From the NCBI GenBank assembly GCA_965113315.1, contig OZ220365.1: 64,000 nt of DNA; one strand, written 5' to 3'. The translations under genes were made by a program, and so were the position numbers. The stretch comes from Podarcis vaucheri. Its lineage: Eukaryota. Position 1 is the stretch's first letter. Each line of letters begins with the position of its first letter. Positions 15,036 to 58,552 of the stretch are shown one piece after another. Below the pieces are notes generated by a model. It was not told where the DNA came from. It did no database searches and saw nothing but the letters and a program-made list of their open reading frames with translations.

Positions 15036-15910
15036 TCACTTGGAGGGACTCCTTTGCTTGAAAATCTCATGCACTTCTGCGAAAAGGCATCAGCATAGCT
15101 GATTTCTGATTCTCAAGTTAGGTCGGGAGTGGCAGAGAAATAGCTTTGGATTTAACAGATCTGATTTGAACCCACATAACTGGAAAACAATAGAAACATC
15201 AAAACCAGATCAAGTTACTTCCTGATGCAGATATAAGGTGACTCTTGTGACCAGTGCACCCTCCAAATAAAAACAGATTTTCCCATAATGGAATCTTCCA
15301 ATACTTTCTACGAACAAAAGTAAAACTGCTGTTTCCCTACTTTTTTCCTCTGTAAGCATAGAATAGTGTTTGAGAGTACTTGTTGACAGTGAGAATTACA
15401 GCTGACACAGAAGTTACTCTAACATTTGCAGTAATCAGCAAATTTTGCACTCAGCTTCCTGGCGAGTTAGAGCAGGCGGGGTTGTCTTTAATATTTCCTC
15501 CATGGTTTCTGAGGATCACAAATGGAAATATACACAGCTGAAAAGGTTTCTCATGTATTGATTCATGTCTGTCACAAAATATATATAATGAGCGAACAGC
15601 TGCCTCAGTGGTCTGCTGTCATTGGCAATCTACAGTGCAAGCAATATGCTGGAGAAGAGGGAGAACTATTAAGCGACCTTAGCATTTTAACCTCAGAATG
15701 TCTAAGTTGTCAGTCAACGGGTGTACCTCACAAACTAATGTTTATCACAGCTTGAAACTCTATCATTGTCAAAAGAGCTGGGCTGCTGCCAAAAATGCAA
15801 TCTTCCATTTTTTTGTAAATTTAATGTTTGGTATTATTAATTCCTAGTGGAGTATGAGGAACGCAAATGTGCTAGTGCTGAGGACCAAAGAACAATAGGC
15901 AGGTTAAGTA

Positions 15911-16141
15911 CAGTGGTACCTTGGGTTAAGTACTTAATTCATTCCGGAGGTCCGTTCTTAACCTGAAACTGTTCTTAACCTGAAACACCACTTTAGCTAA
16001 TGGGGCCTCCCGCTGCTGCCACACAATTTCTGTTCTCATCTTGAAGCAAAGTTCTTAACCTGAGGTACTATTTCTGGGTTAGCGGAGTGTGTAACCTGAA
16101 GCGTATGTAACCTGAAGTGTACGTAACCCGAGGTACCACTG
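15911..16141 (+). mobile_element. Tc1/mariner MITE, family A
   Basis: Same TIRs and internal sequence as the 4515 copy. Confidence 0.85.
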
Positions 16142-17091
16142 TGTCTGCATCTGTGAACTAAATTTGTGTGAGATGCATGCATATATAGAGTCTTTAAAAA
16201 ACAAAAACAAAAATACTCACATTATGCATCACACCAGACATACTTGGTTCAGGGATGGATTCAAAAAATTCCTTTCCTGTGTGTGTGTATCCTCTCTTCT
16301 CTCAGTCTAGTTTTGTTACAGTGGAACTAAACATTGCTAAATCTCCTTGCATCTGCCTGACCCCTAATTCCAACAACAAACCCCTAATTCCAACAACAAA
16401 CCTCCTTGACACATATATAAATTTTAACATTAAAAATACCTATTTTTCTCAATTTAGAGTTGTCTGCCCTCCCCCAAAAGGATACTCATGTGAACCAGCT
16501 TTACATTGTGGCCCATTTGGTTGCTCGACTTTTATAGTTTACTTTTTACTGCTTCCAGCTTCACAATTCATTTTTTTTTTTACATGAAATTTTTGGTATC
16601 TTCTGACCTGGGATTAAGCCGCATTGAACTCAGTGCACTAGCTTCCAAACAGACATGCACATAATCTGTGTTGTCAGTAAGTAATCCAGACTCTCAGCTT
16701 TGTACTTTTGTTGTGTACAAACTTCACACACTTGGCAAGGTGGTATATTATCAATTTTACAAGTTGTGGAGAAATAACCTCTTACAGAGGGATAGTTCTT
16801 GGTCTCCTTTGGAGACATTGGCTCTGAGCCATTTATGAGGGTTATCTGGTAATAAGATGAGTCATAATGAGCCATTCTGCTCCTTTTCCTGCTCACACTG
16901 TGACGATCACCTGTGTTGAAGAAACTTGTGCATCAAGAGAAATGCTTTGAAAAAATGTTTTTACCCTGTGGGGGAGCCATGCTGAATCCAGGTATCAAAC
17001 AAGCTGCTGTAGGTCAAATAAAGCCAAAGCAAAAAGTCAAAGAGTGACTTCCCACTGCCTTGAGAGATGCACATGATATATCAATCACAAC

Positions 17092-25464: not shown

Positions 25465-28063
25465 TCCCTGTCTGCGTTGTCTGATTATCCTCCACATTTG
25501 CTGCCTAACCGCATGTTATATCCTTCTCCCCTTTTTGGCAGCTCTGGATCACTCCTGATAGACCCATTCCCATCCGTGGCTACCTTGACCCAATCTGGAA
25601 GAGCCCTGATTTGTTCCAAATCATCCCAGTTCTATTCAGTGTTTAGCTGGAGAGGTAGCATTGTTCATACCAATCTGAATACTGGTGACTGGAGCGTATG
25701 ACTGGCAAATTGCTATTGTGCTCATGCCTGGAATGTGGGCTTTGAGGCATCTAGTTGGCCACTATGACAACCAATTGCTGGGACTAGCACTGATCCAAAA
25801 GTGCTCTTCATTTAGTGCCGCTACTATTGTCTCTTCCTAATTCACACATCATACATTACATTGCTCATTTGAGTGAAAAGATGTGGATGTTAAAAGTTGG
25901 TTTTACAAAGCCGAAAGTTGGACAATTGCTATACTGTACCTGTTTCACGCCAGTCCGTAACTGAGTACAAATGACAAAGATCCAGGTTTGCAGGTATAAT
26001 TAGTGAGTGTTGGGGAGGAATCTTCATTCATAAGCAAAGTCAGAGAGGTTCCATATCCAGGACCAATATCACTTTCATTTAGTAGTTCAATGCACACTGT
26101 TGAGCTTCTATAACAGACTCTTTATTTCATCAACTAAGTGGTACAAAAACAAAATACAGAAAATGTTCTGCATGGCTGAAGTTAATCAGAACACGTTGGC
26201 TTCAGTACATTAGACTCCAAATAAAGCACAGAGTCAGGTAAGAAAACTATCAAGAACATGGTCACCATCTGTTTCCAAGCAGCAGTTAAAATCAATGTAG
26301 GGAATCTCATATAACATTGTGCTGGTGCAGAGCTTTTAAAATATCAAGATAGCGTAGTGAAGAGGGATTTTGATGTAAAGCACAAATAGGTTCTGCTATT
26401 ATTTTCTCATTCGACTACATAAATAACAGACATAAGTGTGACTAGGAGTTCCTTAAGCTCAGTCAAAAATAGTTTTTGTTTTAAGTATATGCCATGGGTC
26501 AGTGATGGAGTTCAGTCTAGGGGAGAATTCACAAGCTGATTTATCAGGTTCTGGGCAGTGTTGCAGCCAGCACCATGCAAACACAGAGTGGAGGGTTGAC
26601 CCTGATGTCAGCAGCCTTCTGCATGCCAATACAACCCTACACCTTTCCATTATGCTGTTGCATAGTTTTGTCTGCAGTACCGCCCTCACATTTACGGATG
26701 CATCCCACTAAGCACAAGGTAAGTATTAGGAAGGCTCATTCCGGGTCTGACACCTTGCAACAGCTTTTGAGGGTTTCACCTGCTTCACTGGCTGCCACTA
26801 ATACTGACTACTCTGACTGTCTTCAGTCCAAAGACTCTTCAAGGCTTCAACCTTGCAACTTGAGATACTAAATTTAACCTGGGGACTTTTATCTTTAGAG
26901 CATCATCTCCAAAACTGAGCTAGGTCCTCTCTAGTGGTAATGTCTGGATTGCAAGATTCTAATTCTACAATAATTTGATATGAGACAAGCTTTTCCTCAA
27001 CACCACACCTACCGACCTACAAAATGCATTGAATAATCTGGGTGGCTGTAGGTTGAGATCCAATGTGTGATCTAGATCTGGATTTCTGTTAGCATCACTG
27101 CTTAATATTATTTACTTGAAATAATTGTAATAGATCTTCAGATCTGGGACTCATAAAAATGTAACAGTAATAATTTATATGCTGTTATTTAAAGCAATCG
27201 GTTGTCTTGGGAAGATGATCTTTCATCATTAGACTGTTTACTTGTAGCACTGCTTTTCATAATGATAAATGCAAGCAGCTTCCTTTAGAAAAAAACTTTT
27301 TTAAAAAAAAAACATGTGAAATATCAGTTCTAAAATGCAATCTAGATCACAAATTGGAGAAGTCGCATACCACTTTAACAAATAAAATATTTTCATGAAA
27401 GTCTATCTTTTAATATGTCATCCCACTATAAGACCTCACATTAAAAACAGACTTTAATGTGAAATGATTTCATTTATAAAAGTGGTGTTAATTCAAAAAA
27501 ATGTCACCATGATATCAAACCCCATACTGATTAATGCTGGAGATGATACCTCAAAAATTCAAGACACTCAGACTGCTGAGGGCAGAATTATATAATTTGT
27601 CACCTGAGGGTGCAGCTGACATTTCAGGTACCGAATAAATGCTCAAGGGAAATAGAGAATGACGGGTTTGTGAATCCCTATCATATCAAGGAATTTCATT
27701 TTGCATTGCAGGTTTTGTAGTTTTAAGAATGCATGGGAGTTGTAGTTCAACACATTACCCACCTCTGTCTTAGACAACCACTAAATTGACAAATGGTTTG
27801 ACTCAGCTTCGTATGCTATTTGTTAGAAACAAACTAGCACATGGAGTACCTGCTTTTAGCTGATTTCTCCTTAAGCTATGTGAATTTATCAACGCCGAAC
27901 ACTGACAAAGCGTGTTCTCCCTAGCAGAGAGCACGTGTTGCGGTTGGGAACAGGCCACCCTCCTGTGACTAGGCAAATTTAGTTCAATCATGGCCACTTA
28001 AAGGGTTAAATTGGGTTGCTGGGGTGTTTTGAGTGTTACTTTTTTGGAGGAGGGGTCAGAGTC

Positions 28064-28071
28064 TATATATA
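28064..28071 (+). promoter_or_regulatory. Putative TATA box of the YR element internal promoter
   Basis: TATATATA about 130 bp inside the inferred 5' end, preceded by CAATCA (about 27985) and followed by a pyrimidine-rich tract and a CpG island. Confidence 0.5.
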
Positions 28072-28424
28072 CAGGGACCCAACTTTGGCACGGCCTCTTG
28101 GCCGTTTTCCTCGGATCAAGGAGCTCAAAGACGGTTGTATTTGAACCTACCTGAATTCTTAATTCTCGCCCTTATTTCCCCCTTTTACTTCTTTACCTTT
28201 CCCATCTCCTCCCATATTCTCTTACTCTCTCTTCTCCTACTGTTTCCCTTCTTATTCTATTGGTCTGTTTCCTTTCTAGTTTGCTCCTTTCCTTACTGTT
28301 TAACTCAGCCCTGGTTATAATTAGAAGGCTGAGGGTGGGCACCCCCCCCCCGGCCTGGGGTAGGCCTGGGAGGGCAGGCTTGCGGCCGCTTTGGCCCACT
28401 GGAACACCCCCTCCCCGATCGCTA

Positions 28425-29030
28425 GTGCCGCGGCTGCGGATCGCGGCCGTTTCCTCGCCCCGTCTCCACCCCCGCCTCGCGGTTTAGGCCTAGTAACGGC
28501 CTAGAGGTCGGCCTCCCGCCGGTGGGGCGCCACCGGACCGCGGACTCGCCGCGCTTTTCCCTGGGCCTGGGATCGCGGCCTCCCGGCTGCCGGGCCCTTC
28601 CGGGCTGCTTTTTCCCCCGACCTTGCTGGTCCGCTGGGGAGCTTCCGAGCGCCCGGCCCGGCTCCGTCGGGCGAGGCGCGGTGAGTGGCCTTGCTCCTGC
28701 TCGGCCCCAGGAGCTCGGGGTGTGGCGGAGTTTACGCGGCCGAGGATTGCCGCCGCCTCCTTGCCCCCCCACCCCTACCTGTGTTTAGGCCTAGCGTCGG
28801 CCTAGAGAGCGGTCTCCCACCGGTGGGGCTCCCGACGGGCGGCGGACGCGCCGCGCCTTTCCCCGGTTTGGGGGGTTGTGGCCTCACGGCCGCCGGGCCC
28901 TGCCGGGCTGTTTCCCCCTCCTGACCCTGCTTACCTGCGGGGAGGCTTCGGACCACGCCAGGCCCGGCTCCGTCGGTGCGGCCGCCGCGCTCGGTCCTCC
29001 GCCATTGGTGCGGCGCGCTCCTGCGTGGCC
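28425..29030 (+). repeat. Diverged tandem duplication (about 301-bp period) forming a CpG island in the YR element leader
   Basis: GTTTAGGCCTAG at 28482 and 28783, each followed by matching blocks (CGGCCTAGAG, CCGGTGGGGC, GCCGGGCCCT, GGCCCGGCTCCGTCGG). Confidence 0.8.
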
Positions 29031-29154
29031 CTAGGGGAGTGGTTGGCGCGGCGGAGCTCCCGCTAGCCCCCCTGCGGTTCTGGATCTGAGAGCAGGCCAA
29101 GGCTTCGGTGCAGCCTGCACTGTTGATTTGCCTGCTCTGGCTTCAATTGCTTCC

Positions 29155-29408
29155 TGGCCCTCTAGTGGCCGCCTGGTGTAACTGCAGGCTGCCTGCTCGT
29201 GAGCTCCCCTAGTGGCTCAGAGCAGCACTGCAGCTCTTTAGCTCATTGCTTAGAGCAAATAGAGCCACCTTCTGGCCACCTGAGTATTGCAGCCTGCTGC
29301 AATTTAACTGGTAATAGCTCTATCTAGTGGCTCGACCTGGTATTGCGCTTCATCCCACTGCGCTTAAATTGCTAGTGCCCCTGCAGGACGCAGTGAGGGG
29401 CGCACTGT
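29155..29408 (-). promoter_or_regulatory. Tandem array of 4-5 co-oriented CTCF-like sites (core plus upstream motif)
   Basis: Minus-strand reads: CTGCAGTTACACCAGGCGGCCACTAGAGGGCCA, CTGCAGTGCTGCTCTGAGCCACTAGGGGAGCTC, CTGCAATACTCAGGTGGCCAGAAGGTGGCTC, GCGCAATACCAGGTCGAGCCACTAGATAGAGCTA, and a weaker CCTGCAGGGGCACTA. These match the CTCF consensus CCAC/GYAGRKGGC with a TGCAG/A upstream module. Confidence 0.75.
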
Positions 29409-29653
29409 GTTATAATAATCATTAGAATTACTTAAATTAATTACCTTCCTTGAATTTTATTTCTGTAGTAATTTTAGTTCTTCTAGTAGTGGTTAGTCAA
29501 GGGTTCCTAAAGTGTTTTGGCTCACTAGTAGGTACTTTCCAGTGCTCCAGGGTTAAAGGCCTTTGGCCATTCTTGGTTTCCTTTATCCAAAGCTAACAGT
29601 CTGCTCGGGTTTATTGATACAGGCCTTCTTTATCCTTTGTTTAACTAGCAGGT

Positions 29654-31192
29654 ATGGCTCCAAAGAAAGCTTCAACCCGCGCTGGCACATCTGTTTCTAC
29701 AAAACGGCCTATTAAGGGGCCATCTCAAGCGCTCCGCTCTTCGGCTCCGAGACAACCAGTGGGGCGGATCCAGTCCTTGGTGGCAAGCATGGCCGGTGAT
29801 CCTGAAGCCTTGTCTCGCTTCGCAGCGGACATGGACGGTTTCCTGCAACAATGCTCCAGTCAGCCTTCCACGTCTGCACGGCCGCCTCGTCCAGTGAGGG
29901 TGTCGTCACCGGTGTCGTCTGCCTCTAGCGAGGATGGGAGAGAAGGGTTGTCAGCTGGGGGTGGCAGGGTTGATTCCCAATTAACCCAGCCTTGTTACTC
30001 ACCTGCAGTTCGCGGCCTTCCACGGAGGACAAGTCGCTCTTCCAGGAGGGCACCAGGGGGGAGGAATCCTCCGGCATCTACCAGCCGCAGGGGCAGGAGC
30101 GCCCACCCTCCCGCCGAGGTGGCGTCTGGTTCTGGCCTTTCACTCCTTGTCTCTTCTCCATCAGTCCCAGATTCAGCGCAGGATCCAGGTGCCTCTCAGC
30201 CAAATTCTGACTCGGCCTCTTCTATGGAAGATAGCTTACCAGTCCCGGCTAAGAGATCATTGGGGGGGAAGCGTCACCGCAGAAGATCTTCCCGGAAGCG
30301 TGCCAGACGTAGGAGGGCGGATTCTTCTTCATCTTATACGGGTACGTCATCTAGCTCTGACGATGAGGCTGGTAAATCAATGGAACTTTATTGGGGTTTC
30401 GGTGAGACGGCTTCTGGGCTCCCGAGGTGGGCCTGGGAACGGCGCGCCAATACGCACCGTGCTAGGTATGGTGCAGTACAAGAGTGCAGGGATGGTGTGT
30501 TGGTACCTGACACTAAGGTCTCTACCAATTCAGCCAGGGACATTATTCCTGGTTCACACTTGGCTACGAAGCTTCGGTCTAGGATATTGAATGGCCGTTA
30601 CGTAGACATTTTTAAGTTGGCCCCACCTTCGGAAGATTAAGAGAAGGGGCCTTCTTCCAAGAAGCGCCAGGGCGCTGCCACTTCAGACAGAACATTCGAA
30701 CTTTGGCTCGACTGTTTTCAAGTCTTCGCTGGTGTTGTTGTGGCAGCCTATCCTCGGAGGTCTCTTCACTTGTTTGTTTACCTATCCATTGTTCGTTCTG
30801 CTTTCACCAAAGCTGGTGAACGGGCTGCGATCAAATACGATGAAAATTTCAGGCGCCGAGCGGCCAAGATTCCCACGGCCCGTTGGGATCGTAGGGATCT
30901 CGATGTTTGGACCACCCACGTGGCCCCTTTCATTGATAAGAAAGCGCCAGAACAGCAGAAATCTAAGCCGGCAGCCTTTAGGTCTGGTCGCAGGCTTATA
31001 TGCTGGGACTTTAACAAGGGCTCCTGTCAGCGACAGGGGTGCAGATATGCCCATGTCTGTGAAAAGTGCAATGGTTCGCATGCTGCCTCCTCTTGTTTTA
31101 GTGGTCGCCGGCCCTTTCGAGGGGGCAGAGGGGGTTCTCAGCAAAGCCACAAACCAACCCCCTCCCCTGCAACTTCAGCTGCAGGGAAATGA
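29654..31192 (+). pseudogene. YR-retrotransposon ORF1 (Gag-like, about 512 codons, C-terminal Cys/His zinc finger) with one premature stop
   Basis: ORFs 29654..30640 and 30740..31192 are in the same frame, separated only by TAA at 30638-30640 (..PPSED*EKGPSSKKR..). Ser/Arg/Pro-rich N-terminus. C-terminal CWDFNKGSCQRQGCRYAHVCEKCNGSHAASSC finger, as seen in ORF1 of DIRS-order elements. Confidence 0.8.
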
Positions 31193-32798
31193 CACACTGA
31201 CCTCCTTGGCGTACACTCCTGTTCGCCTACAGCCCCTGCAGTTATGGCTGCAGTCTTACCCTAATAGGGAGGCTGCGGCCTATTTGTTCAATGGTTTTTC
31301 TGTGGGTTTTCGGATTCCTGTAGCCATGCCTCCCATGGCACAGAATCCTGCTAATCAAAAGTCAATTCGCGAGCTGCCTCAGGTCGCTCGCAAGAAGATA
31401 GCGAAGGAAGTGGCCATGCAGTGCATGGCTGGCCCCTTTGATAGACCTCCCTTTCATAATTTGCATGTATCCCCATTGGGTATCGTGCCTAAAAAGGCCC
31501 CTGGTGAATTTCGTTTAATTCATAATTTGTCACATCCCACAGGCACGTCAGTCAATGACGTTATTCCTCCAGAGCTATGCTCCGTAAGGTATGCTTCTCT
31601 TGATCAAGCGATCAAGATGATTAGGAAGTTCGGCCATGCAGCATTATTGGCGAAACGCGATATTGAATCAGCCTTTCGCCTTTTGCCAATTCACCCAGAG
31701 GACTTTTGGCTGCTTGGCTTTCAGTTTGAGGGCAGCTATTACTTTGACAAGGCCATGCCTATGGGATGTTCCGTGGCATGTGCCGCCTTTGAGGCATTTA
31801 GTACCTTTTTGGAGTGGGCCCTAAAATTTAAAACAGGTTTGGGCGGAGTCACTCGTTATTTGGATGATTTTTTATTGGCCTCGGCGAGCGATTCTGGCGA
31901 GTGCGCAATGTTGCTGCAGGCCTTTGCTGACATTACGCAGGAACTGGGAGTTCCGCTTGCAGCCGACAAGACGGAGGGTCCTTCCACCCAGCTCACTTAC
32001 TTGGGTATCCTATTGGATACTGTGGCTCAAACTTCCAGCTTGCCAGAGGACAAGTTGGTTGCTTTGAGGAGGATCATTGAGGACCTACTTCCTCTGAAAA
32101 AGGTGTCTCTCAGGCAGCTCCAGTCACTTTTGGGACACCTGAATTTCGCCTGTAGAGTGGTGGCCCCCGGGCGCCCCTTCTGTTCACGCTTGGCGCGCCT
32201 CACTGTAGGGTTGAAGGCTCCGCATCATCGGGTTCGCCTCTCTAGTGAGGTGCGAGCGGATCTTCGGATCTGGCTTGAATTCCTGAAGGAATTCAATGGG
32301 GTGTCCTTATGGCAGGACACTTTGAACCTGCATAATGACTTCCAGGTGCATTCCGATGCGGCAGGCTCCTTGGGTTTCGGCCTATATTGGAAGGGTCGAT
32401 GGTGCGCTCAGCGTTGGCCGGCTGAGTGGCAGGGAAGTGAGATTACGCGGGATCTAACTTTTCTCGAGTTTTTTCCAATTGCAGTGGCAGTACATTTGTG
32501 GGTCGAGGAGTTCAGGAACCGCCGTGTCTGCTTCTGGACCGATAACCAGGCGGTGGTGAATGTGTTGGCCAAGCTTTCATCTCGCTCGCCCAGGGTGTCT
32601 GCCCTTTTGCGAGCATTTGTGCTGCATTGCTTACGTTGTAATATAGTTTTTTCTGCACGTTTTATTCCCGGGGTGTCAAATGAAATTGCTGATGCTCTGT
32701 CCCGTTTTCAGATGGAGCGGTTCAGACTTCTGGTTCCAGAGGCGCGGATACGTCCGGAATATTTCCCGGATCATCTCTGGAACCTTGGCAGCAATTAG
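30732..32798 (+). CDS. Reverse transcriptase-RNase H of DIRS/Ngaro-type retrotransposon (real start probably about 31100-31190; overlaps ORF1 in another frame)
   Basis: Uninterrupted frame. RT motifs SPLGIVPKK, FRLIHNLS, KRDIESAFRLLPIHP, MPMGC and YLDDFL. RNase H motifs SDAAGSLGFG, LEFFPI, TDNQAVV and NEIADALSR. Confidence 0.93.
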   Translation: MLLWQPILGGLFTCLFTYPLFVLLSPKLVNGLRSNTMKISGAERPRFPRPVGIVGISMFGPPTWPLSLIRKRQNSRNLSRQPLGLVAGLYAGTLTRAPVSDRGADMPMSVKSAMVRMLPPLVLVVAGPFEGAEGVLSKATNQPPPLQLQLQGNDTLTSLAYTPVRLQPLQLWLQSYPNREAAAYLFNGFSVGFRIPVAMPPMAQNPANQKSIRELPQVARKKIAKEVAMQCMAGPFDRPPFHNLHVSPLGIVPKKAPGEFRLIHNLSHPTGTSVNDVIPPELCSVRYASLDQAIKMIRKFGHAALLAKRDIESAFRLLPIHPEDFWLLGFQFEGSYYFDKAMPMGCSVACAAFEAFSTFLEWALKFKTGLGGVTRYLDDFLLASASDSGECAMLLQAFADITQELGVPLAADKTEGPSTQLTYLGILLDTVAQTSSLPEDKLVALRRIIEDLLPLKKVSLRQLQSLLGHLNFACRVVAPGRPFCSRLARLTVGLKAPHHRVRLSSEVRADLRIWLEFLKEFNGVSLWQDTLNLHNDFQVHSDAAGSLGFGLYWKGRWCAQRWPAEWQGSEITRDLTFLEFFPIAVAVHLWVEEFRNRRVCFWTDNQAVVNVLAKLSSRSPRVSALLRAFVLHCLRCNIVFSARFIPGVSNEIADALSRFQMERFRLLVPEARIRPEYFPDHLWNLGSN

Positions 32799-33682
32799 TC
32801 CTTCAGGGAGTAGCGGCATCGGTTTCCCCTTCTACCTTGAGATCTTATAGTAAAGCATGGGCCGATTTTCAGGCATTTGTACAACAGTCAGCTAGGTTAC
32901 TAGTTGGGGTCCCCCCCACCTCTTCGCAGGTGCTACAATATTTAGCCCATTTATTTCAGCTAGGGCGTGCGGGTAGGACACTTAGGATGCAGGCAGCTGC
33001 TATATCATTTTTCTGTAAGACACATTTTGATACCGATCCTTGTGCAAAATTTGTTGTTTGCAGAGCCCTAGAGGGTTGGGGCCGTCTATGTCCTTCTCAG
33101 CCGACAAACCGACGCCCCATCTCGTTTGAATTATTGAGCAAGATGCGCAAAAGTCTGAGGGTGGTGTGTTGGTCTACCTATGAGGCTCGCCTTTTCGCGG
33201 CTGCCTTTTCAATCGCCTTCTTTGGAGCTTTGAGAGTAGGTGAATTGGTAGTGGAAGACCACCGGGATGGTCGTTCCAGGGGCCTTCTGCTCCAGGATGT
33301 GCAATTATCCCCTGCTGAACTGAGAATTACGATTCGGTATTCAAAGACGGATCAGAGGGGCAAGGGCGCTCTCATTTGTCTTCCTGCCACTGGGGCGGCA
33401 GGCCCTTGCCCAGTAAAGGATGTTAATAAGTATCTAGCGGTGCGAGCGCACGGGGATGGGCCGCTGCTTCGGCACGAGAATGGGTCACCCCTTACAAGGC
33501 ACCAGTTCGCAGGGGTGATGCGTAAAGCTATCCTGGCCTGTGGTGGCGTGGCCACAGATTTTGCCCCCCATTCCTTCAGGATAGGGGCTGCCACGACTGC
33601 AGCTCATTGGGGTTTGTCAGCTGCTAGAATTCAGGATTTGGGGCGTTGGAGGTCAAATGCGTTCAAGGGATATGTTCGTTAA
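32714..33682 (+). CDS. Tyrosine recombinase (phage-integrase family) of the retrotransposon
   Basis: Catalytic motifs FGALRVGEL (R), SKTDQ (K), HSFRIGAAT (H-x-x-R), GRW and KGYVR (Y). The frame is open from 32693 and overlaps the RT C-terminus. There is no ATG before the domain (the ORF track starts at TTG 32837). The start given is the first full codon after the putative acceptor at 32711. Confidence 0.92.
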   Translation, partial: GAVQTSGSRGADTSGIFPGSSLEPWQQLVLQGVAASVSPSTLRSYSKAWADFQAFVQQSARLLVGVPPTSSQVLQYLAHLFQLGRAGRTLRMQAAAISFFCKTHFDTDPCAKFVVCRALEGWGRLCPSQPTNRRPISFELLSKMRKSLRVVCWSTYEARLFAAAFSIAFFGALRVGELVVEDHRDGRSRGLLLQDVQLSPAELRITIRYSKTDQRGKGALICLPATGAAGPCPVKDVNKYLAVRAHGDGPLLRHENGSPLTRHQFAGVMRKAILACGGVATDFAPHSFRIGAATTAAHWGLSAARIQDLGRWRSNAFKGYVR

Positions 33683-33725
33683 CAATTTTAGTGTCTGATA
33701 CTGTTTTGGTTTATTTATCCCAGGT

Positions 33726-34298
33726 CTGCCAGCCGTACGCGTCTGGATGGTGGGCCACAGCATCATCCATTGGGCTGGTGTCGCAGCACGGCAGTCCGGA
33801 TTGGGTCCAGGTCTCGGCCTTCCTTCACACGTTCGGGTGTCCTGGCTGTCCAGATGAGGAATGCGGTGGTCGGAGTTTTTGCCACGAATTCGAAGGCAGT
33901 TGCTCTTGGAAGGGCCGCCAGAGGCTATTGTGGTGCAGCTGGGAGAGAATGACCTGGTTGCCATGGACTGCTTATCATTACGTGCTGCAATTTTGGCTGA
34001 CCTGGAGACGCTGCGGGCAATGGTGCCCACAGCCAAGTTATTTTGGTCTAAGCTTTTGCAACGACGCGTTTGGTTGGGAAGTCGTTGCCCGGTTGCCACA
34101 GAAAGGGCCAGGAAACGCATCAATGCAGCAGTTTCCAAAAGGATTGTGGAACTGGGTGGAGAGGTGATCTTTCACCATGAAATCTCCTATCCTGCGGCAG
34201 CTCTCTTTAGGGCCGATGGAGTGCACCTTTCTGCTTCTGGGAATGAGGTTTGGCTAGGTGCGGTGGTGGCCAAGCTGAGGTCTTGGCTGGGGTTGTGA
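33726..34298 (+). pseudogene. SGNH/GDSL hydrolase (esterase) ORF of the retrotransposon, with one premature TGA
   Basis: Block I VWMVGHS (33741-33761), block II RxGMRW, block III QLGENDL and block V DGVHLS. In-frame TGA at 33855-33857, probably CGA>TGA CpG decay. The downstream part is ORF 33861..34298. Confidence 0.85.
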
Positions 34299-34648
34299 GT
34301 GGTTTGGCGGTGAGCTGAGGGCTCTATGGCGGTTAGGTGCTGGTTAAATTGGTGCTTGGAGGGGTAAGTGCCTACCCCTCCAAATGAGGCGAATGGGAAT
34401 TCCGTTAAAGGAAATCCAGGGGCTTGCCATTCTTTTGTCCTTGTCCCCGGAGTCGGACTTGGGCCGTGCAAGCCCCACAGGAACATGAGGGTGAGAAGTA
34501 ATGGTCTGTTTCCCGGCTTTATTTCTCACCCAATACTTGTTTCCCACGCTGGCTTCCGCTGGTGTCCGGAAGGCCAGCCCTGTCCCTGAGGGCAAGGACA
34601 GATAGTCATAACCAGTGCCTAAGCAACCACTCACATTTTTTGTATTTG

Positions 34649-34654
34649 AATAAA
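34649..34654 (+). terminator. Polyadenylation signal of the YR element
   Basis: AATAAA about 95 bp from the inferred 3' end, followed by a GT-rich tract (TGATGTGTGAAGTGTG). Confidence 0.6.
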
Positions 34655-36612
34655 GTTGTGGCCAAAATTATGCCAAAAACCTTAAACAAAAATTGATGTG
34701 TGAAGTGTGAATTATTGGGGGGCTACTGTGACTCAACACGCAACCTAAGAAATGTGTTTTGTTTTTAGCTGGCTGCTTTCAGAATTTAACAGTAGCAGAG
34801 AGTGAATTTTGCTGTAATAATTGTATAAAGATTTGCTTCCCTTTATATAAAAAAATCCAAATTGATAAAATGGTTTGCCAACTCCATGTCCTCTTTATAA
34901 TTAAAACCAAATCATTAACTCAGTTGGGCATCACTGCTCATGTGTGAAGGAACACTCTGGAACACACAGGGATATTGCAAACCTAATTGTTTTTGACACT
35001 GACAATATTATTAAAGGTCCCCTTTGGATTGTCAGGTAATGTTACAGTCATTTGAGTTCTACACATTTAAGTACCTGATGAAAAAGTAAGATTCGTCATT
35101 TACCATAAAAGGAGCAGAGCTTCTTCTTCTTTTTCGTAGGCCCAAAATTCAGAGCGCAAAGAGTATTTAAAAACACACTTGCATTTGCTGGCCTTTGAGA
35201 AAAATTCAAATGCTTTGAAGCTTCCAGATTCACTCTTTGGTTCAAAACCTTTGGGAAGTGTGCCTGAATATTTTCAACAACATTTCTGCTCGGGTTAATG
35301 CAGGAATCATTGCAGCCATGTTTTAAATGGCTATATTTGCTGGATAATTACCATTCATTTGGCAATAAGCTAGATTCAGCCTGCTTCATAGAGTGCTGCA
35401 GTTTTATTTAATAATTTAAGCCACATTTCTGTTTGTTCAGTACCAGCTCAAAATACTTTGTAATGCTGGCAGTTCTTTGCCTGTTTATAATTTATTTATC
35501 CCATTATTCTTGGATTGCAGACCTAATCGTTCCACTAGGTTTGTTCTTTTGAAATAACTAGCAATACATTTATGTTTATGGATGATATACGTAGGCTATA
35601 TTTATCATGCCGCTTCTGATTTGACATGCTGCTTGGGCTATCAAAGATTATCTGAGGAACTTGATGCACCGTACTGAAGGTGTTAAGATAGGTTTAAGGT
35701 GCTATTTTAAGGAAATATAAATTGCTTGGGAAGAGCCATTCATTCTTCTTTAACTTGAGGTAGATTTGTGAAGCCATTTGATGACCTGACTGTGAGTTCC
35801 TTTCCTTCTGCATTTTCCTATGTGCTGTAGGGTTGCACAATTTCATTTAGGAACTTGGTAGCTGTGCTGCGACATGGGAAGGAGGGGAAAGATCCCTCAC
35901 TCACTTCATGCAGATCCTTCGAAGGCCTAGTCCTGAAATGCATACCATTTGAATGGCAATGTCCATCAACTGTGGGGGGCCCTAGCCCCTAAAATATTTT
36001 ATTGGGGGGCTGAAAGGACCTTAGCCCCTAGGAGTTGGCTCCTATGGTGCACTGCTTAGGGTGACCTGCTTACACATCACCAAAACAGAACACCAGAAAA
36101 AGAGACTGCAGATTTTCAATTTAGATGAATAGGTGCCAATTTAGAAATGATGGATTGTATCCAACTATGTTTTCTTCAGAGTAGACCCACAGGACATGAA
36201 CAGACCCAAATTAGTTATGTCCACTAATTTCAGTGGGTCTGTTCTGAATATGACTAATGCTGGATACAACCTAGTTACAGCACCATAATTTTAACAGAAA
36301 TGCAAGACATCTGCAGCTACAAAAGCTGAGGCTGCTGAACAAAATATTGGACAGGGGTCTGCCAAGGGGCATTATTGCTGTTAATTTTTTTGGATCTTAC
36401 AATTTATGTGGAAATTGTTCTATTTGGTTGGGTACTTTTTGAAATTCTGTTTATTGTTTATGACTACTTTTGTTACGTTTCTAGTCGTGTATTTTTTTTA
36501 AGTTGTAAGCTGCATTGGACATTATTTTAACTTTAGAAAGACAGTATACAAATAAAATGACTGATTGACTGATTGATTGGTCTCACCATAGTGGGAAAGG
36601 CTATGACCGAGT

Positions 36613-37474
36613 TGTGGACCACAGGTATGAAGTTTACGGCATGTAATGCCTTGAGAGAGACTATTATGAAAATGATTTACAGGTGGTACATGACCCCAGT
36701 CAAGCTTGCAAAAATCTATCATTTGCCCGATAATAAATGTTGGAAATGTAAAGAAACTGAAGGTACATTCTTTCACCTTTGGTGGACGTGCCCAAGGATT
36801 AAGGCTTTCTGGGAAATGATATATAATGAACTGAAAAAGGTATTTAAATATACCTTCTTGAAGAAACCAGAGGCCTTCCTCCTGGGCATAGTCGGCCAAT
36901 TGGTGCTAAAGAAGGATAGAACTTTTTTTATGTACGCTACAACAGCAGCAAGAATACTCATTGCAAAGTATTAGAAGACACAAGATTTACCCACTCTGGA
37001 AGAATGGCAGATGAAGCTGATGGACTATATGGAACTGGCAGAAATGACTGGCAGAATCCGAGACCAGGGAGAAGAGTCGGTGGAAGAAGATTGGAAGAAA
37101 TTTAAAGACTACCTACAGAAATATTGTAAAATTAATGAATGTTAGAATGATGTTGGATAGAAATTAAGTGGTTTCCAGCTGTAATGTTTTAAGGGAATAT
37201 GAAAAATGGGTTGTTAATAGAGAAAAATCTAATGTTACTATTTTAAGACCAAAGATTAGGATAAACAAAGAGGGTAAGGATTTGCTGAGCCAACAAATTG
37301 AACTGGAATACAAAAAAGGGAGGTATGAGGAGGTCCGGGAAACAAGCTAAGGAAAATAAGTAATAGAAAAATGGAGTGGTTTTTAATCATTTTTGTTTTG
37401 TTTTGTTTTTTGTTTTTCATTTTGTATTGTAATATCTTTAAAAAATCTTAATAAATATCTTATATATATATAAA
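36613..37474 (+). mobile_element. 5'-truncated L1-clade LINE
   Basis: ORF2 C-terminus [18 protein letters not shown] with a premature TAG at 36972. AATAAA and A-rich tail. 17-bp TSD AAAGGCTATGACCGAGT at 36596-36612 and 37475-37491. Confidence 0.9.
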
Positions 37475-43436: not shown

Positions 43437-44774
43437 CTTTGGGGGGTTGCCCAGTTTCACCCATCAGTGTGACCCTATTCACCATGAAGTCCCCCTATTC
43501 ACGATTAAGAGCCAGTCTCAGCTAAGAGGCTATGATCAAGTCTAGCCCTTGCACCAAGCAGAGTAACTCGCACAATCTGAGTTGAATTATTCTCACTGCC
43601 ACATAGCGTTTACCCTCTGCCTGTACTGAATAAAACATAGCCTTACTTAAGTCCCACAATATTGTATCTAGCATCTTTATCTAATCCAGATGCAAAATCA
43701 AGGGGGCACAATTAAAGTTGATTTGGCGCATTTACTCAACAAATCTCCCCTTTTCAGAGCAGAAAGTGTGGGATAACAGTTGACATCAGATAGCCTCCCT
43801 GCAAATGAATCAGAATGAATTGTCTGGAAGCAATCAATGTTTGACTCACATCATGTTATTTTCGCCTCTTACAATCAATTCATATTTCTTTTCCTGGAAT
43901 GCAAAAAATAAAAATAAAAAAAAATCTGAGGCCACAAATTAGCTGGCAGTCACTTCCGGTGCCATGGATGCTACTCCCTTAATCACAGAAGAATTGCGTT
44001 TGCAAACGGACGTGAGCTCTGCCACCTTGCTCTAAGTCAGTAAACAGCATTATCAGTAAATCACGTGCCTAGCCCTTGGGAAGAATTTATTATTATTCCC
44101 CCAACAACTCAGCATCAAGGATAAGTTACAGCTGTAATTCTAAATAGCTTTGATACCCTTGCTTGGTGACTGCATTGTTGTAATAAGCCGGCAGCCTGCC
44201 AAACATCCCTCCAGGGCTGTTATTCCTCTTTCAGCTATATCATTTTAATTTACATGGAAATTATCAATACTTTAAAATGGTACTTGTCCATCAAGCTTGT
44301 TTGTTTCCCATCTCCCTAAAGTGCTGCAATCCAAATCCAGATCATTGATTGGTTGAGCAGCCATAATAGCTCCTCCACATTCTATTCATATTGCTTCCCT
44401 CATTCTGCTCTAACTGACCCAAGACCAGCTGTTAGTGACTGTTCCTCTGCTAATCCTCACTAAATCACACTGCATTTCCTCCATTATTTAGTTATGCTAC
44501 AGCATTTAGTTATGCTTTTGATGTTGTTACATGGTGGCTGGTGTAATTATATTATACAAATATTTATCTACCAGGGCTGTCAGTCAGTTAAGACCTGTAA
44601 TCCTGTGCACAGATATGCATCTCTAAACTCCATGGAAGATTGGCATCAGAGGTATAGTAATAGAATGTTGAGTTGCAATCTAACATCCCAGTCCAAAGTA
44701 TGTTTACTCAGAATAAGTCCTGTAGCTATCAGGAAAACTTAATGTCCAATGTGTTTTGAACCATGGTCTAAATA

Positions 44775-45000
44775 CAGTGGTACTTCGGGTTGCATACACT
44801 TCAGGTTACAGACTCGGCTAACCCAGAAATATTGCTTCAGGTTAAGAACTTTGCTTCAGGATGAGAACAGAAATTCTGCTCCAGCAGTGCAGCAGCAGCA
44901 GGAGGCCCCAATAGCTAAAGTGGTGCTTCAGGTTAAGAACAGTTTCAGGTTAAGTACGGACCTCCGGAACAAATTAAGTACTTAACCCGAGGTACCACTG
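44775..45000 (-). mobile_element. Tc1/mariner MITE, family A (inverted)
   Basis: Same TIRs and TA flanks; internal sequence is reverse-complemented. Confidence 0.85.
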
Positions 45001-48000
45001 TACAATATAACCCTGCATATATGATTTATTGGATTTTTATTTCAGCCATCCTTTAGAAGGAACCCAGGGTGGCTATATGGCATTGGGTCAAAATTATACA
45101 AAAATCAAAAGCTACTACACTTACATCTATGTGAACCCTATTAACTTCAGCAGGGCTTAAGCATATGGAACTGTGCCCAGGTTGAACAGAAAACTAGTGG
45201 ATAACTCTGTTCTGATCCATACTTTAGTTTGGAAGGTGCGGTTCATTATAGGAATTTGCAAAGTCCAGAAACAATCCTAGTGTGGGCCATAACAAATCAT
45301 GTTCAATGCAGATGTAAATGGCTGCTTGTGTAGTGATCCTTAATTACATTTGGGTGAAATTCAACATTGTGCTAGCATAATTGTTCCATCAATGCAAGCA
45401 TTTCTCTGGGTGTTCTCTTGCCCTTTGAGGGTGGATTTGAAGGGAGGGGACACAACAGGGATAAGAAAGCCTTGTTGCACTGGTGCAAGTCCTTGTGCTG
45501 GCTTCTCCTGGTTAGTTGAATCTGGTCCTTTTGTTTTGAAACATGAATTTAAAGCCCCTGAAACAAAAGCACACCCCAAATCTAAGGGCTTATCCACACT
45601 TCCTCTAGTGCCACTGCTTCCCTGCCCCACCCCCACCCTGGTAAAATCACTGTTTAGTGTTCAATTAGAGCAAACGGCAATTTGGGTTTGTTCCACATTG
45701 CCATTTGTTCCGCTCTATCGCTAAAGAGCGGGTTTTCCCTTGGAAAGGAGCAGGGTAAGGAGAAAGCCATTCAAACCCATGCCTAGAAAGTACATGTCGG
45801 GCGAGAAACTGCTCAGGCCCATGCTTTGTAGGCAAGAAACAAGCAGAAGTGTGGGTGAGCCTTAAGGCTGTATAGCTGTATTTCATCAATGTTCATCAAT
45901 GGAGCATTGCCCAAATAGAGAACTTCATGGGAATTCCTAGCCCAGGAGTGTGCCTCCTCATTTTATCAAGTGTACATACCACAGAATACAACTGAGGAGC
46001 TTTTGCCTATTTCATGGAGCCATTTGTTTATGACAACTGCCGTTGGCGTTATTCGCCAGTTGCCTAGCTGGATAGCATTATCAGCCATACCTATTTGTAT
46101 TGTTATATTAATGGATCATTTATATCAGTTAGTTTTTTGTAGATACTCTGATTAGTTTATTAATTTGTATATACTGACTTTAGAACAAATTCAGAGGTGG
46201 ATGCCTTTGCCTATTGTAATTCAAAGCACATTAAGAAACCATTTCTTGTTTGTTAAAAAGGTCCTGTAGAGGTTAAATTCAAAACAGGGCCATTTCATAT
46301 TTTCGTCTACTTTGCATGATTTATGCAAAATAGATCAAACTTTCCATTGTGTTACTTTATGGAAGTATGTGTTTCTAAATATATTTCTATGTATGTGCCC
46401 CTTTATAAATATTTAAATGGTCTTTCACTACTTCTTTTTGAAAAATGGTAAAGGTTCGTCGTTACACTCTCTGGTATCATGGGCATGATAGAATAATATC
46501 CCCTCATTATCATGCCTATTCATAGAAACATGAGTACATCAAAAGTTAGGATGCTTCTGAGATTTTTCTCATCCCTTTCCTGAAAATGAGTATGAACACA
46601 TTGTTTGCTCTCTTTCTTTTTTTAGGGCTGTTTGTATCAATATGGCCATACAGGGGGACATAATTGGGTTCAATTATGAGGAGACAGACTGGGGATACCA
46701 CCTCCCTCCTCTCTCCTTCTCTGTGGTGTTTTGCCAGTGCACAAACTGCAGCCACTGGAGCCGGATTGGTTTGATGGCAGCAGGGCTTGTTCAGGATGCT
46801 CTAAAAGCACTAAAGGATTATTACCTGCAATAATATGGCTCTTTTCTTTTCTTTTCTTTTCTTTTCTTTTCTTTTTTGCAAGGTTTGAACTGCAGGCAGT
46901 TAAAAAGGGTGAGGGAAAGTGTGCATTATCCGGTTCCATAATTAAATTTTAGAAATTATCCTAGTTAATTCAGAAGTAGTGCAACACTAATCAGAGTAAA
47001 TCAGAGGACCAATAGAAGAAAAGAACCGTGGAAATCATCCCAATCCTTAGTAGTATTAGTAGTATAAAAGTGGGCCCAACACTTTTCTCTTACAAAAGCC
47101 TCTCACCAACCATCCCAGACTAGGTTTGATATTTTGTGTATTGTCTTAATTATGCTGTTGGTTTATTGCCTCTAAATTTTATATATTTCAATAGCTGTGT
47201 TTTAGCTTTGTAATGTAAGGCCTCCTGGGATATATGTTAAAAAGGGTGGTGTATTGATACCTTAAACAATGGGTACAGCAATCTGAACCCCTTATTGTTG
47301 AGTGGGTGAAAATGAGTGTTCTGAGGGTGCATAGAGTCTGAGCCAGCCTGGAATCTTCTGGATCCTGAACCAGCCCCACTGCTATTATATGCTAGCTTTA
47401 GGCTTAATCTGAGGCCAGTCACTGCAGCAGCTCCTGGCTGGCACAGAGATTTGCCTGCCCATCCACCTTCCACCCTGTCTGGCATAAGCAGATGTGGTGA
47501 TAGCACTTGTCCATCAAGTGTCACTGCTGCCTAGCCAAAGTTTGGACTGCAGCCTAAAAAGAGTCAGGAGAGAGAGTCTTTGTCTATTGAATAGACACCT
47601 CATTTTCCTAAGGGGCATAACAGCTGATCAGTTCCGTGATGGGATCTGTACAAGTCCTTCACAGTGCTAACGCTTTGCTAGAAAGTGAAAGCCAAGACTG
47701 TGTCCATAATCAGATTGCTGGATGTCAGGTTTATTGTCTCACACATTATGCTGCTGCATCTTGAGTATAGCAGATTTGTGCAGCAACAACAACAAAACAA
47801 AAACCCCAAGCTATATGTGTTATAAAAACGACAAATTATTAATCTGGAATATTCATACTCAGTTCATTCCCAGAGTCTCTTTGGTCATTTGCCACCTCAA
47901 AGCCTATGACTTATGTAGAGTTTATTAACTCCAATCTTTCTTCTCTTGTGCTAACTCTAGAAGGGAATAGCTTAAAAGAATTTCATTTTGGAAACAAATC

Positions 48001-48519: not shown

Positions 48520-49971
48520 GTTTTTTGTTTATAATAATATTTATTAGTTTTCCAACAAATTGAACACAACACTACCAAAAAACAAAGGAAAAAATACAAT
48601 AATACAATACAATACAAAAACAAAAACAAAACAAAACTGCAAAGCACTAACATACAACTAACAAAACAAAACAAAAACCATTTAAAACACAGTCCAATTT
48701 CAATATCTTATCTTTCTTTCACTAATTTCCATGACCTCCTCACACCTCCCTTTTTGTATTCCACTTCTATTAACTGTTTCAGCAATTCCTTTCCATCTTC
48801 CTCTGTTTTCTATCCTATAATTGTCTTAACACATTCTAACCTTATTTTTCCCTTTAATGCTCTAATAATCTATTTTCATACTTAATTCCTTATAACATTT
48901 CTACTAAAGCCATATAACTTCATTCCAACATCTTTCTAACATTCATTAATTTTACAGTATTTCTGTAAATAGTCTTTAAACTTTTTCCAGTCTTCTTCCA
49001 CCGACTCTTCTCTCTGGTCTCGGATTCTGCCAGTCATTTCCGCCAATTCCATGTAGTCCATCAACTTCATCTGCCATTCTTCCCTGGTGGGTAAATCTTG
49101 TGTCTTCCAATATTTCGCGATGAGTATTCTTGCTGCTGTTGTTGCATACATAAAAAAAGTTCTATCCTTCTTTAACACCAATTGGCCGACCATGCCCAGG
49201 AGAAAGGCCTCTGGTTTCTTAAGGAAGGTATATTTAAATACCTTTTTCATTTCATTATAAATCATCTCCCAGAATGCCTTAATCCTTGGGCACGTCCACC
49301 AAAGGTGAAAGAATGTACCTTCAGTCTCATTACGTTTCCATTATTATTGGGCAAATGGTAGATTTTTTGAAGCTTAATTGGTGTCATGTACCACCTATAA
49401 ATCATTTTCATTAAATTTTCTCTTAAGGCATTACATGCCGTAAATTTCATACCTGTGGTCCATAACCGTTCCCAGTCAGCCATCATTATGTCATGTCCAA
49501 CATCTTGTGCCCATTTGATCATAGCTGATTTCACCGTTTCTTCCTGAGTGTTCCATTTCAACAGCAAGTTATACATTCTTGACAAATTCTTAGTTTTTGG
49601 ATCTAACAATTCTGTTTCCAATTTTGATTTTTCCACCTGGAACCCAACTTTTTTGTCCAATTTGTATGCCTCCATTATTTGATAGTAATGGAGCCAATCT
49701 CGCACTTTGTTTTTCAATTTTTCAAAGCTCTGCAATTTTATTCTCTCCCCATCTTGTTCCAGAATTTCCCAATATTTCAGCCATTTGGCCTCCATATTGA
49801 CTTTTTTTGTGTGCCTTCGCTTCCATTGGTGACAACCATCTTGGGGTTTTTTTCCTAACAAATCCTTATATCTTATCCAAACATTAAACAATCCTTTTCT
49901 AACAATATGCTTTTTAAATGCTTTATGTGCTTTTACCTTATCATACCACAAATATGCATGTCATCCGAATA
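48520..49971 (-). mobile_element. 5'-truncated L1-clade LINE (same family as 36613-37474)
   Basis: Frameshifted ORF2 C-terminus (ORFs 49262..49951 and 48936..49265), nearly identical in protein to the other copies. TSD GCAACTGAGGT at 48509-48519 and 49972-49982. Confidence 0.9.
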
Positions 49972-54200: not shown

Positions 54201-54336
54201 GCACAATATTGCCTTTGAGCAATGTTTTGAGCCAGGGTTGGTTGGCCCAAATAGATTGGCCAGCAGGCGACACAGTTTTCAAGAACTAACCTCAGTAGCA
54301 GGGAACACTTGGGGAAGTCTGGCCTCTAAATACGTA

Positions 54337-54562
54337 CAGTGGTACCTCGGGTTAAGTACTTAATTTGTTCCGGAGGTCTGTTCCTAACCTGAAACTATTC
54401 TTAACCTGAAGCACCACTTTAGCTAATGGGGCTTCCCACTGCTGCCGCGCAACCGGAACACAATTTCTGTTCTCATCCTGAAGCAAAGTTCTTAACCCGA
54501 GGTAATATTTCTGGGTTAGCTGAGTCTGTAACCTGAAGCGTATGTAACCTGAGGTACCACTG
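54337..54562 (+). mobile_element. Tc1/mariner MITE, family A
   Basis: Same TIRs and TA flanks. Confidence 0.85.
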
Positions 54563-55473
54563 TAATTATATTACATACCTCCAACAACTCAAGGCGAAAA
54601 ACCAGGACACTATCTTCAGGGGCTGCACTCCTGCATTAGTCATGTGACTAGTGCAAGATTGCAGCCCTGGAAAAAAAGCACGGTATGAGATTGCAGCACA
54701 AAATTGTGGTGCCCCAAATGGCCACTGCACTCTCAAGCAAAAAACCAGAATGTCCTGGTTTTATCGGGACATTTGAGGGGCATGATATTACAGATCAAAT
54801 ACTTTTAAAACAGCACAGGCAATCATGTCTTGTGTCTTCATGTCCATGTATATCTTTGTTTCCCAATGTCTGTTTGCATTTTCTCAGAAGCATTTCTCTA
54901 CTTAAGAGGCGCCTAGCATTTTCCATTCAATTTCACTTGCTCAGTATTTTTGCCCAGGAGAGTTCCAGGTGTCAGCTTGCTTGGTTTTGTGGATTGTAGC
55001 AAACACAGAGCGATACTGCCCTAGGCCTTAAACTGTTGGATGTTTGAAAAGAACAACAGGGAAGAAAATGCTTCATTATTGTGTCGCTATGCCCTTTCCC
55101 TGAAGCACTGGCAAGCAGCATCAATTCCTGCCAACAGGACACTCTTCTGTGTGGACGAATGACCCCACCAATTAAACAATGTTTATGCCCTGCCTCTTTC
55201 AATGATTTTTTGGCTAGCAAAATGTTTAGGATTGAATTGGAAAATAAATGTCTGTGAAAATAGGGGGGAGGGAATGTTTTTCTATCCATCTTATTTATTG
55301 CATTTATAAGGGACCTCATAAAATACAACTTTGGGGCTTGGTGCAAAGATCAAAATGACTAAAAATGTAACAATAAAACTATCCTACAATACAATACACA
55401 GGAACTAAATTAAAAACCAAATGCACAACCAGCACAATAAGACCATATACAGCACAGAACCAAAACAGCCAGC

Positions 55474-56544: not shown

Positions 56545-57040
56545 ACTGTGGAACCACCTATTGGGTTCCCAGTCACGATGCCACCCATCCCTGTGGGACG
56601 CTATAATTAAAGTGCGAGAAACAAAATAGGATAAAAATGGCCACAACTTTATTGATTTCAGATGTAGGTGGACTTTAGCTCAGGCATTGGGTGTATATCC
56701 ATTTCAGGCTCCTGCTAGAGTGCTGAAACTTTTCAGGGTCAGGCCAAGGATTTTTGGCCTCCCCAAGAGGCTAATCTACTAAGGTAGCCATCCTCAGACC
56801 ACCACTGGAATCTCTATAGCCTGTTTGCCCCACGCTTGGCTTCTGAACAGAGATTTCCATCCAGATCCCTCTAATGGGGTACTCTGAATATCCTACTGGT
56901 TGAGGTCCAGGTGATGCACCTATTCACCCCAAACCTTGATGAATTCCACCTGATGCCTTACCCACCCTAAGTTGTGGTGCCTTGCTATGGGGTAGACAAA
57001 ACCTCCAAATGAACCCAATCTGTTTGTAGGCAAATTCCTT

Positions 57041-57784
57041 TTTTTTTAATAAAATTTTTATTGGTTTTACAGAAATTTTTTATAACAAACAAACATATAA
57101 AAAGACAAACAAACATGCATAATTTCATAATATCTTTTCTTAAACTTCTTTTCTGCGACTCCCCCATACCTCCCCTTTCTGCATCCTCATGTCCAAATTT
57201 TTATAGCAACTTGTAACTGTTTTTTCCACTCTAATTCATCTTAGTCCTTTCTTAATCAAATCTTACATTACTGCAACCCTTTCTTTCTAGAAAACCTCGA
57301 CATTCTAACATTCATCAAGTTTATAATAGTCCTTGAGATAGATCTTAAATTTCTTCCAGTCTTCTTCCGCAGTCTCCTTTCCCTGATCACGAATTCTGCT
57401 AGTCATCTCCGCCAATGTCATGTAGTCAATCACTTTCATCTGCCACTCTTCCAAGGTGGGTAGGTCTTGTGTCTTCCAATACTTTGCGATCAGTATTCTT
57501 GCTGCTGTTGTTGCATACATAAAGAAAGTTCTGTCCTTCTTTGGCACTAGTTGGCCGACAATGCCCAAGAGAAAGGCCTCTGGTTTCTTAAGGAAAGTAT
57601 ACTTAAATACCTTTTTCATTTCATTATATATCATTTCCCAGAAAGCCTTAATCTTCGGGCATGTCCACCAAAGATGATAAAAAGACCTTCAGTTTCCTTA
57701 CATTTCCAGCATTTGTTATCGGGCAAATGGTAAATTTTTGCTAGCTTGACTGGGGTCATGTACCACCTGTAAATCATTTTCATA
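57041..57784 (-). mobile_element. 5'-truncated L1-clade LINE
   Basis: ORF2 C-terminus with CWKC..H..C knuckle region (frameshifted) and poly(A) tail. 20-bp TSD TGTTTGTAGGCAAATTCCTT at 57021-57040 and 57785-57804. Confidence 0.9.
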
Positions 57785-58551: not shown

Positions 58552-58552
58552 G

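Follow-up and report, generated by a model that had tools for sequence, protein, structure and literature searches.

The 64,000-nucleotide stretch of Podarcis vaucheri DNA analysed here (contig OZ220365.1 of assembly GCA_965113315.1; hereafter the window) carries on its plus strand, at 27,937-34,744, a copy of an SGNH-type Ngaro-like tyrosine recombinase (YR) retrotransposon. This copy has the layout A, open reading frames (ORFs), B, with both ends placed to within about 5 nt, and it contains neither split direct repeats (SDRs), nor an internal complementary region (ICR), nor a target-site duplication (TSD). With a probability of roughly 0.75, we consider it a non-autonomous copy of an ordinary lacertid SGNH-type Ngaro that has lost its A2 repeat and one B, either by recombination between B1 and B2 or by YR resolution. 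The labels A and B given to regions of the element are putative. The original prediction had left the choice between a distinct terminal architecture with its own replication route and a copy that had lost its repeats. Loss of the repeats is favoured over a new route by the defective state of the copy, by the documented SDR-less copies of Xenopus (PMC9210276) and by the presence in the same window of a remnant that resembles a solo A-B.

Gene content and classification

The element is GC-rich and set in AT-richer DNA. It contains four reading frames, in the order gag-like, reverse transcriptase/RNase H (RT/RH), YR and SGNH hydrolase. The gag-like ORF (29,654-31,192) has a CCCH zinc finger and is broken by a TAA at 30,638-30,640. 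The RT/RH ORF (31,191-32,798), open from 30,606 and in the +1 frame relative to gag, matches Pfam RVT_1 (8.5e-12) and has the motifs YLDD, DAAG, LEFFP, DNQAV and ADALSR. Just 30 amino acids follow the last RNase H motif, and no match to the Dam methylase was found at E<=0.1 in this ORF or in any of six relatives. The YR ORF (32,693-33,682) is in the -1 frame, overlaps pol by 106 nt, matches Phage_integrase (8e-5) and has intact catalytic motifs (LRVGE, SKTDQ, HSFR, GRW and GYVR). Finally, the SGNH exon (33,724-34,298) lies behind a splice acceptor AG at 33,722-33,723, matches Lipase_GDSL_2 (2.3e-5) and is interrupted by a TGA stop at 33,855-33,857. No integrase (DDE) or protease family appeared in the six ORF scans of the element.

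The presence of RT/RH together with a YR, without DDE integrase or protease, is that of the DIRS order. Within it, the lack of a methyltransferase past the RNase H, the same-strand YR located 3' of pol with a short -1 overlap and the SGNH ORF after the YR are those of Ngaro-like elements of the amphibian type, a layout described in PMC9210276 and PMC13003380. The Ngaro-like gene content claimed for 27,937-34,744 was therefore borne out by the ORFs, the Pfam matches, the motifs and the missing Dam match. The long inverted terminal repeats (ITRs), ICR, methyltransferase and NTT at both ends of DIRS1-like elements are all absent (the element begins with GTT and finishes with AAC, with no direct duplication), as are the methyltransferase and the split direct repeats of PAT-like elements. 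The SDR arrangement of Ngaro itself (A1...B1-A2-B2) is also missing from this copy, and for this reason we file it as Ngaro-derived and not as an intact Ngaro.

The copy is defective, because the two in-frame stops, in gag and in SGNH, are not found in close relatives. The position of the gag stop is spanned by the alignment in 14 of 17 named relatives and that of the SGNH stop in all eight. The RT/RH and YR frames remain open. Regarding expression, the plus strand has a GT donor (30,342) whose phase agrees with that of the acceptor (33,723), and the gag N-terminus is fused to SGNH in gene models of P. lilfordi (P0124) and P. muralis (P0130), which points to splicing, with SGNH probably produced as a fusion to gag. 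The gene models of 21 named lacertid proteins, mapped to the window, were uninformative on 3' repeats.

Termini and search for repeats

The region 27.5-35.2 kb was compared with the window by blastn (word size 7, E<=10, two scoring schemes) and no long repeat joining the ends of the element was detected, in agreement with the earlier statement that split direct repeats, or any long repeat between the ends, were missing. The one long off-diagonal match was an internal tandem duplication of 74% identity (28,429-28,670 / 28,735-28,976), which was rejected as an SDR, being too diverged and wrongly placed. The absence of a DIRS-type combination of ITRs and ICR was confirmed as well. The eight tests of a terminus against the interior were all at chance level (best, 12 of 200 shuffles), and so were the 18 tests, in both orientations, of the junction against the interior in search of an internal junction copy (best, 19 of 100). 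As had also been noted, there is no TSD, here for lengths of 1-10 nt at 27,937/34,744. A diverged A2 located behind SGNH was unsupported, the match of the A head to the post-SGNH region being reached by 293 of 1,000 shuffles. The ideas that the left flank is a B unit, that the right flank is an A unit or that the flanks are duplicated were rejected with 976, 213 and 381 of 1,000 shuffles, respectively.

The short inverted termini of the original prediction are present as quoted. The left one (27,937-27,953) starts with GTTGCG, the right one (34,726-34,744) ends with CGCAAC, and they match in inverted orientation over 15 of 19 columns, 6 bp of them perfect. Nevertheless, this match alone is at chance level (equalled by 491 of 2,000 shuffles and by 631 of 4,974 random 100 x 100-nt pairs taken from the window) and is insufficient by itself to define the ends. 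Microhomologies of 2-4 nt at the ends (CACG at 27,932/34,737, and AC) make the exact limits uncertain by about 5 nt. To that precision the proposed ends are supported by the remnant described below, because it has the same 3' end and the same RTTG...CAAY termini. Actually, all four ends read RTTG inwards, as GTTG...CAAC in the element and ATTG...CAAT in the remnant. From this comparison the support is good for the 3' end of the element and moderate for the 5' end. It is reasonable to consider the left terminus as the putative right half, and the right terminus as the putative left half, of a B|A site for the YR, a view that gains support from the matching termini of the remnant. The suggestion that the joined ends would look like a YR site is acceptable to this extent, but it provides no argument for a new route because a canonical Ngaro would carry the same B|A junction. 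No clear shared core for clean excision was seen at the element ends.

The putative promoter region (27,983-28,071) contains a CAAT-like box (CAATCATGG.CAC at 27,985) and the TATA-like TATATATA at 28,064, 127 nt inside the left end, and the sole AATAAA of the element is found at 34,649, 95 nt inside the right end. Promoter and polyA signals inside the ends are the normal situation of YR retrotransposons, as shown for DIRS-1 (PMC7192593).

A related ORF-less remnant in the window

An older related element was found on the minus strand at 62,112-56,560, with about 770 bp once its insertions are removed. When the last 135 nt of the element were scanned against 56,635 positions, the B-like 3' piece of the remnant (56,560-57,037) gave the top score (z 5.7 vs 4.7 for the next), with a 133-nt length that had been picked from the remnant itself, and its local score was reached by none of 1,000 shuffles. 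Element and remnant share AATAAAGTTGTGGCCA, followed by GTGACT 77 vs 79 nt further on and then by CAAY at equal offset; of the 32 GTGACT sites in the window these are the only two with CAAY at that offset. The A-like middle piece (57,803-58,081) contains the CAATCATGG box, a TTTAAAA and a pyrimidine tract, and within the window the CAATCATGG.CAC box is common to element and remnant only. The similarity of the A-like body is weak and the tests gave mixed results, with scores reached by 6 of 300 and 34 of 1,000 shuffles, but a rank of 17 among 562 and 9,916 of 56,600 positions doing as well. The 5' tip (62,093-62,112) starts with ATTGC and its ATTGCAGGGTGGGA matches GTTGCGGTTGGGA of the element with a similar spacing to the CAATCATGG box, a score equalled at 369 of 113,716 positions. 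Beyond these limits the similarity falls to 4 of 25 positions upstream of the tip and 5 of 26 downstream of the 3' end. The size of the remnant fits an A-like region of about 325 bp plus a 3' region of 446 bp. No coding remains were detected in it, either with an SGNH profile over 3,318 six-frame segments or by tblastn; a DWVHL stretch considered as a trace of SGNH was outside the top 15 of these segments, and all segments beyond the element were at chance level.

The 5' tip of the remnant was cut off by a young long terminal repeat (LTR) element (58,082-62,093) with 471-bp LTRs 99.8% identical, a 5-bp TSD and a CCHC knuckle at about 59,769. It also contains a 3' fragment of a long interspersed element (LINE) at 57,038-57,784, with polyA tail and an 18-nt TSD, which belongs to one family with two other 3' fragments in the window (36,611-37,413 and 48,654-49,466; 84-86% identical).

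Origin of the repeat-free structure

The history that we infer involves an SDR-bearing parent, a deletion route and termini that act as YR half-sites. The intact parent would be A1-gag-RT/RH-YR-SGNH-B1-A2-B2. Transcription would begin inside A1 and stop inside B2, giving an RNA without both tips, and the internal B1|A2 junction would be the template for their repair, after which a circle would form. The YR would integrate this circle at the B|A junction, the halves of which would remain as short imperfect inverted termini. Since the B|A junction is presumably the YR site, the start of A and the end of B are expected to be imperfect inverted half-sites. The loss of A2 and one B from such a parent would give exactly A-ORFs-B, with precise ends, no repeats and one polyA signal. 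The likelier route, to which we assign about two thirds of this explanation, would be a homologous deletion involving B1 and B2, which lie close together; in the other the YR would recombine the pair of B|A junctions in the circle, and the circle with one junction would then integrate. The reciprocal kind of event, between A1 and A2, would leave a solo A-B, as the ~770-bp remnant resembles, and the window appears to hold one A-ORFs-B and one solo A-B, derived from different subfamilies. A simple transcript of the copy at 27,937-34,744 would not suffice to restore its ends, and the copy is probably dead, even though its RT/RH and YR frames are open.

Similar cases have been published. Ngaro-like elements have the structure A1-ORFs-B1-A2-B2 without methylase, and those of amphibians carry SGNH (PMC9210276). 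In the same work the DIRS-54_XT consensus is devoid of SDR, yet two retrieved copies have SDRs, and many other Xenopus copies have lost them wholly or partly. Solo AB repeats were reported for the Ngaro of Cafeteria (PMC8547959), SIRE corresponds to A2-B2 of VIPER, and the Repbase consensus sequences of VIPER and TATE are without the repeats that real copies carry (both in PMC6681497). Most fungal YR copies are also without complete repeats (PMC3783388). For DIRS-1, experiments showed that the element cannot do without its ICR; its transcript does not include the tips, and the junction of a circular form is believed to serve for integration (PMC7192593). Given this requirement for the ICR, active YR retroelements should contain some internal template for their ends.

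Several points weigh against this explanation. The main gap is that the parent structure is taken from other taxa and not from any lizard copy. The assignment to the Ngaro-like class comes from gene content. A B unit of 446 bp would exceed the 152-bp B of DIRS-53_XT (PMC9210276), and transcription would have to read through a polyA signal in B1. The missing trace of A2 is predicted by a deletion but equally by a family without repeats. The similarity of the remnant to the element is weak at its 5' side, and an internal deletion in a member of a repeat-free family could have produced the remnant as well.

Alternative explanations

A lacertid family that is repeat-free by design, with no internal end template and bounded only by the RTTG...CAAY inverted half-sites, seems unlikely to us. 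In such a family the YR would excise a DNA circle, read-through RNA across the B|A junction would be terminally redundant as in pararetroviruses, and the RT would make from it new circles for integration by the YR, a hybrid of Crypton-like excision and retrotransposition in which the ~770-bp A-B elements would be the non-autonomous partners. It would agree with the open RT/RH and YR frames, with the single polyA signal and with the precise look of both ends, common to an independent remnant and with a matching terminal pair (G..C vs A..T); moreover, our literature search yielded no article that deals with the ends of lacertid Ngaro elements or with a Ngaro family active without SDRs. However, it is built on one copy, twice mutated, and the ends show no clear shared core from which a circle could be cleanly excised. 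The published DIRS-54_XT consensus is a precedent for a sequence without SDRs, but its SDR-bearing copies turn it into a warning, reinforced by VIPER and TATE, for which the Repbase consensus also missed the repeats of real copies. Besides, such a replication route was not met in the YR-element literature examined, as far as the available text of those papers goes.

The deletion of A2 and one B from a canonical Ngaro also has to be compared with technical explanations. The collapse of B1-A2-B2 to a single B during assembly would produce the same appearance, since an assembler can presumably merge identical direct repeats separated by a few hundred bases, but the window contains no Ns and the 471-bp LTR pair, 99.8% identical and 3.5 kb apart, was resolved in it, which makes this explanation very improbable. 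The least probable of all is that the ends are mis-set, either with the element at 27,965-34,733 between an 8-nt direct repeat, CTGTGACT, the inverted arms being host DNA, or with ends at the CACG repeat (27,932/34,737). YR integration is expected to leave short direct repeats as a scar (PMC7192593, PMC3266345), CTGTGACT is exact (27,963-27,970 / 34,726-34,733) and the joined flanks fold as a hairpin with z of -2.6 to -3.1, in a region chosen because of its inverted match. However, an exact 8-mer is common to 89 of 600 random pairs, and the shuffle figure for the CTGTGACT pattern is not a fair test, the pattern having been chosen after being seen. The similarity between remnant and element continues past those limits on both sides, the remnant being without the 5' GTGACT, and the two GTGACT sites with the CAAY offset are precisely those of element and remnant. 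Rfam finds no RNA in the flank, with no match at the gathering threshold in the window and just two matches of E~9 in the left flank, and shifting the ends would restore neither SDRs nor an ICR. The version of this idea in which CTGTGACT marks the true ends, with inverted arms that belong to a hairpin or small RNA of the host, was rejected, given the Rfam result, the chance level of the 8-mer and the matches of the remnant beyond the repeat.

Non-coding regions and surroundings

The 5' leader of the element is 1.7 kb long and CpG-rich. It includes the tandem duplication mentioned above (28,429-28,976), two copies of about 240 bp that form a CpG island (GC 0.74, CpG observed/expected ratio 0.84). 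An intron candidate is also found in the leader, on the plus strand, with a donor-like GTGAGT at about 28,681 and a pyrimidine tract and AG ending at 29,651, directly before the gag ATG. The 3' non-coding region (34,299-34,744), the single B-like unit, contains, apart from the AATAAA, a GT-rich stretch (approximately 34,694-34,709) and a perfect 11-bp stem with a 6-nt loop at 34,356-34,383, which could have a role in priming, packaging or polyA control. Leaving aside a TA microsatellite, the window has just one other stem of this kind.

At and to the left of the 5' end, the stretch 27,800-27,964 is CpG-rich (observed/expected 0.67 vs 0.26 outside the element), with a small hairpin at about 27,898-27,919 and no Rfam match; it could represent either a regulatory site or a further element. 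Elsewhere in the window there are four copies, 86-94% identical, of an interspersed repeat of about 230 bp, probably a short interspersed element (4,502-4,735; 15,905-16,142; 44,769-45,003; 54,321-54,569).

Relatives in other genomes

The best protein matches are all Podarcis muralis gene models, with 89% identity for RT/RH (523 matches among 8,000 scored candidates, the matches being 'uncharacterized' gene models), 97% for SGNH (15 among 448) and 76% for gag (34 among 8,000); the contigs that carry them differ widely in length. Many ORF-intact Podarcis copies are among the protein matches. Outside the lacertids the similarity drops to 52-59% in other squamates (among the named non-lacertid matches) and 47-55% in amphibians, and the X. 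tropicalis RT/RH relatives are 49-52% identical, in records not tied to a named family. No match to the element was found in the plasmid and phage collections.

A scan of genome contigs provided five loci from 61 candidate stretches, all distant, none holding both ends and none informative about SDRs. One of them (L001, 1-5088) has all four ORFs, with an acceptor-like tract preceding SGNH, and finishes about 140 bp past it, and another (L003, 6,900-10,200) has gag and pol but just a faint trace of YR, and is not flanked by a long direct repeat. The other three (L002, L004 and L005) are fragments of 1.3-3 kb. All five come from metagenome-assembled genomes assigned to bacteria or archaea (Pseudomonadota, Mariprofundus, Nitrosopumilaceae), one of them in a 932-kb contig, and most likely represent eukaryotic contamination.

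Significance and comparison with known systems

If the element is a repeat-deleted Ngaro, it is one more degraded copy and of little significance by itself. What is gained is a pair of candidate YR-site termini (RTTG...CAAY) for a recently active lizard family, of which no description was found in the literature search, and a caution that SDRs can go unnoticed when a consensus is built. If the family were instead truly repeat-free, it would add to ITR plus ICR and to SDR a third means by which YR retrotransposons restore their ends, and the many ORF-intact Podarcis copies would be a ready test system.

The closest known systems are the Ngaro-like elements of Xenopus (PMC9210276), which have the same gag, RT/RH, YR and SGNH ORFs, no methyltransferase and some copies without SDRs. 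Their intact copies are A1..B1-A2-B2 (in DIRS-53_XT with A of 236 bp and B of 152 bp), an arrangement that the lizard copy lacks, and the latter differs as well in its lacertid host and in the 1.7-kb CpG-rich leader. In the Ngaro of Cafeteria burkhardae (PMC8547959) and in VIPER/SIRE (PMC6681497) split-repeat recombination leaves ORF-less A-B units, as the remnant appears to be. The hosts are distant, and the available text of these papers describes the solo AB but not explicitly an A-ORFs-B product. DIRS1-like elements, such as DIRS-1 and the AcDIRS1/2 of Anolis (PMC7192593, PMC3266345), share RT/RH plus YR, a transcript shorter than the element (in our case predicted from the sequence) and the absence of TSD. 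In contrast, they have a methyltransferase, ITRs of about 100-200 bp, an ICR and usually NTT at both ends, none of which is found in the lizard element. Finally, Cryptons (PMC13465315) are also YR-mediated and without long terminal repeats, but they are DNA transposons without RT and with flanking direct repeats of 4-6 bp, whereas the Podarcis element encodes RT/RH and gag.

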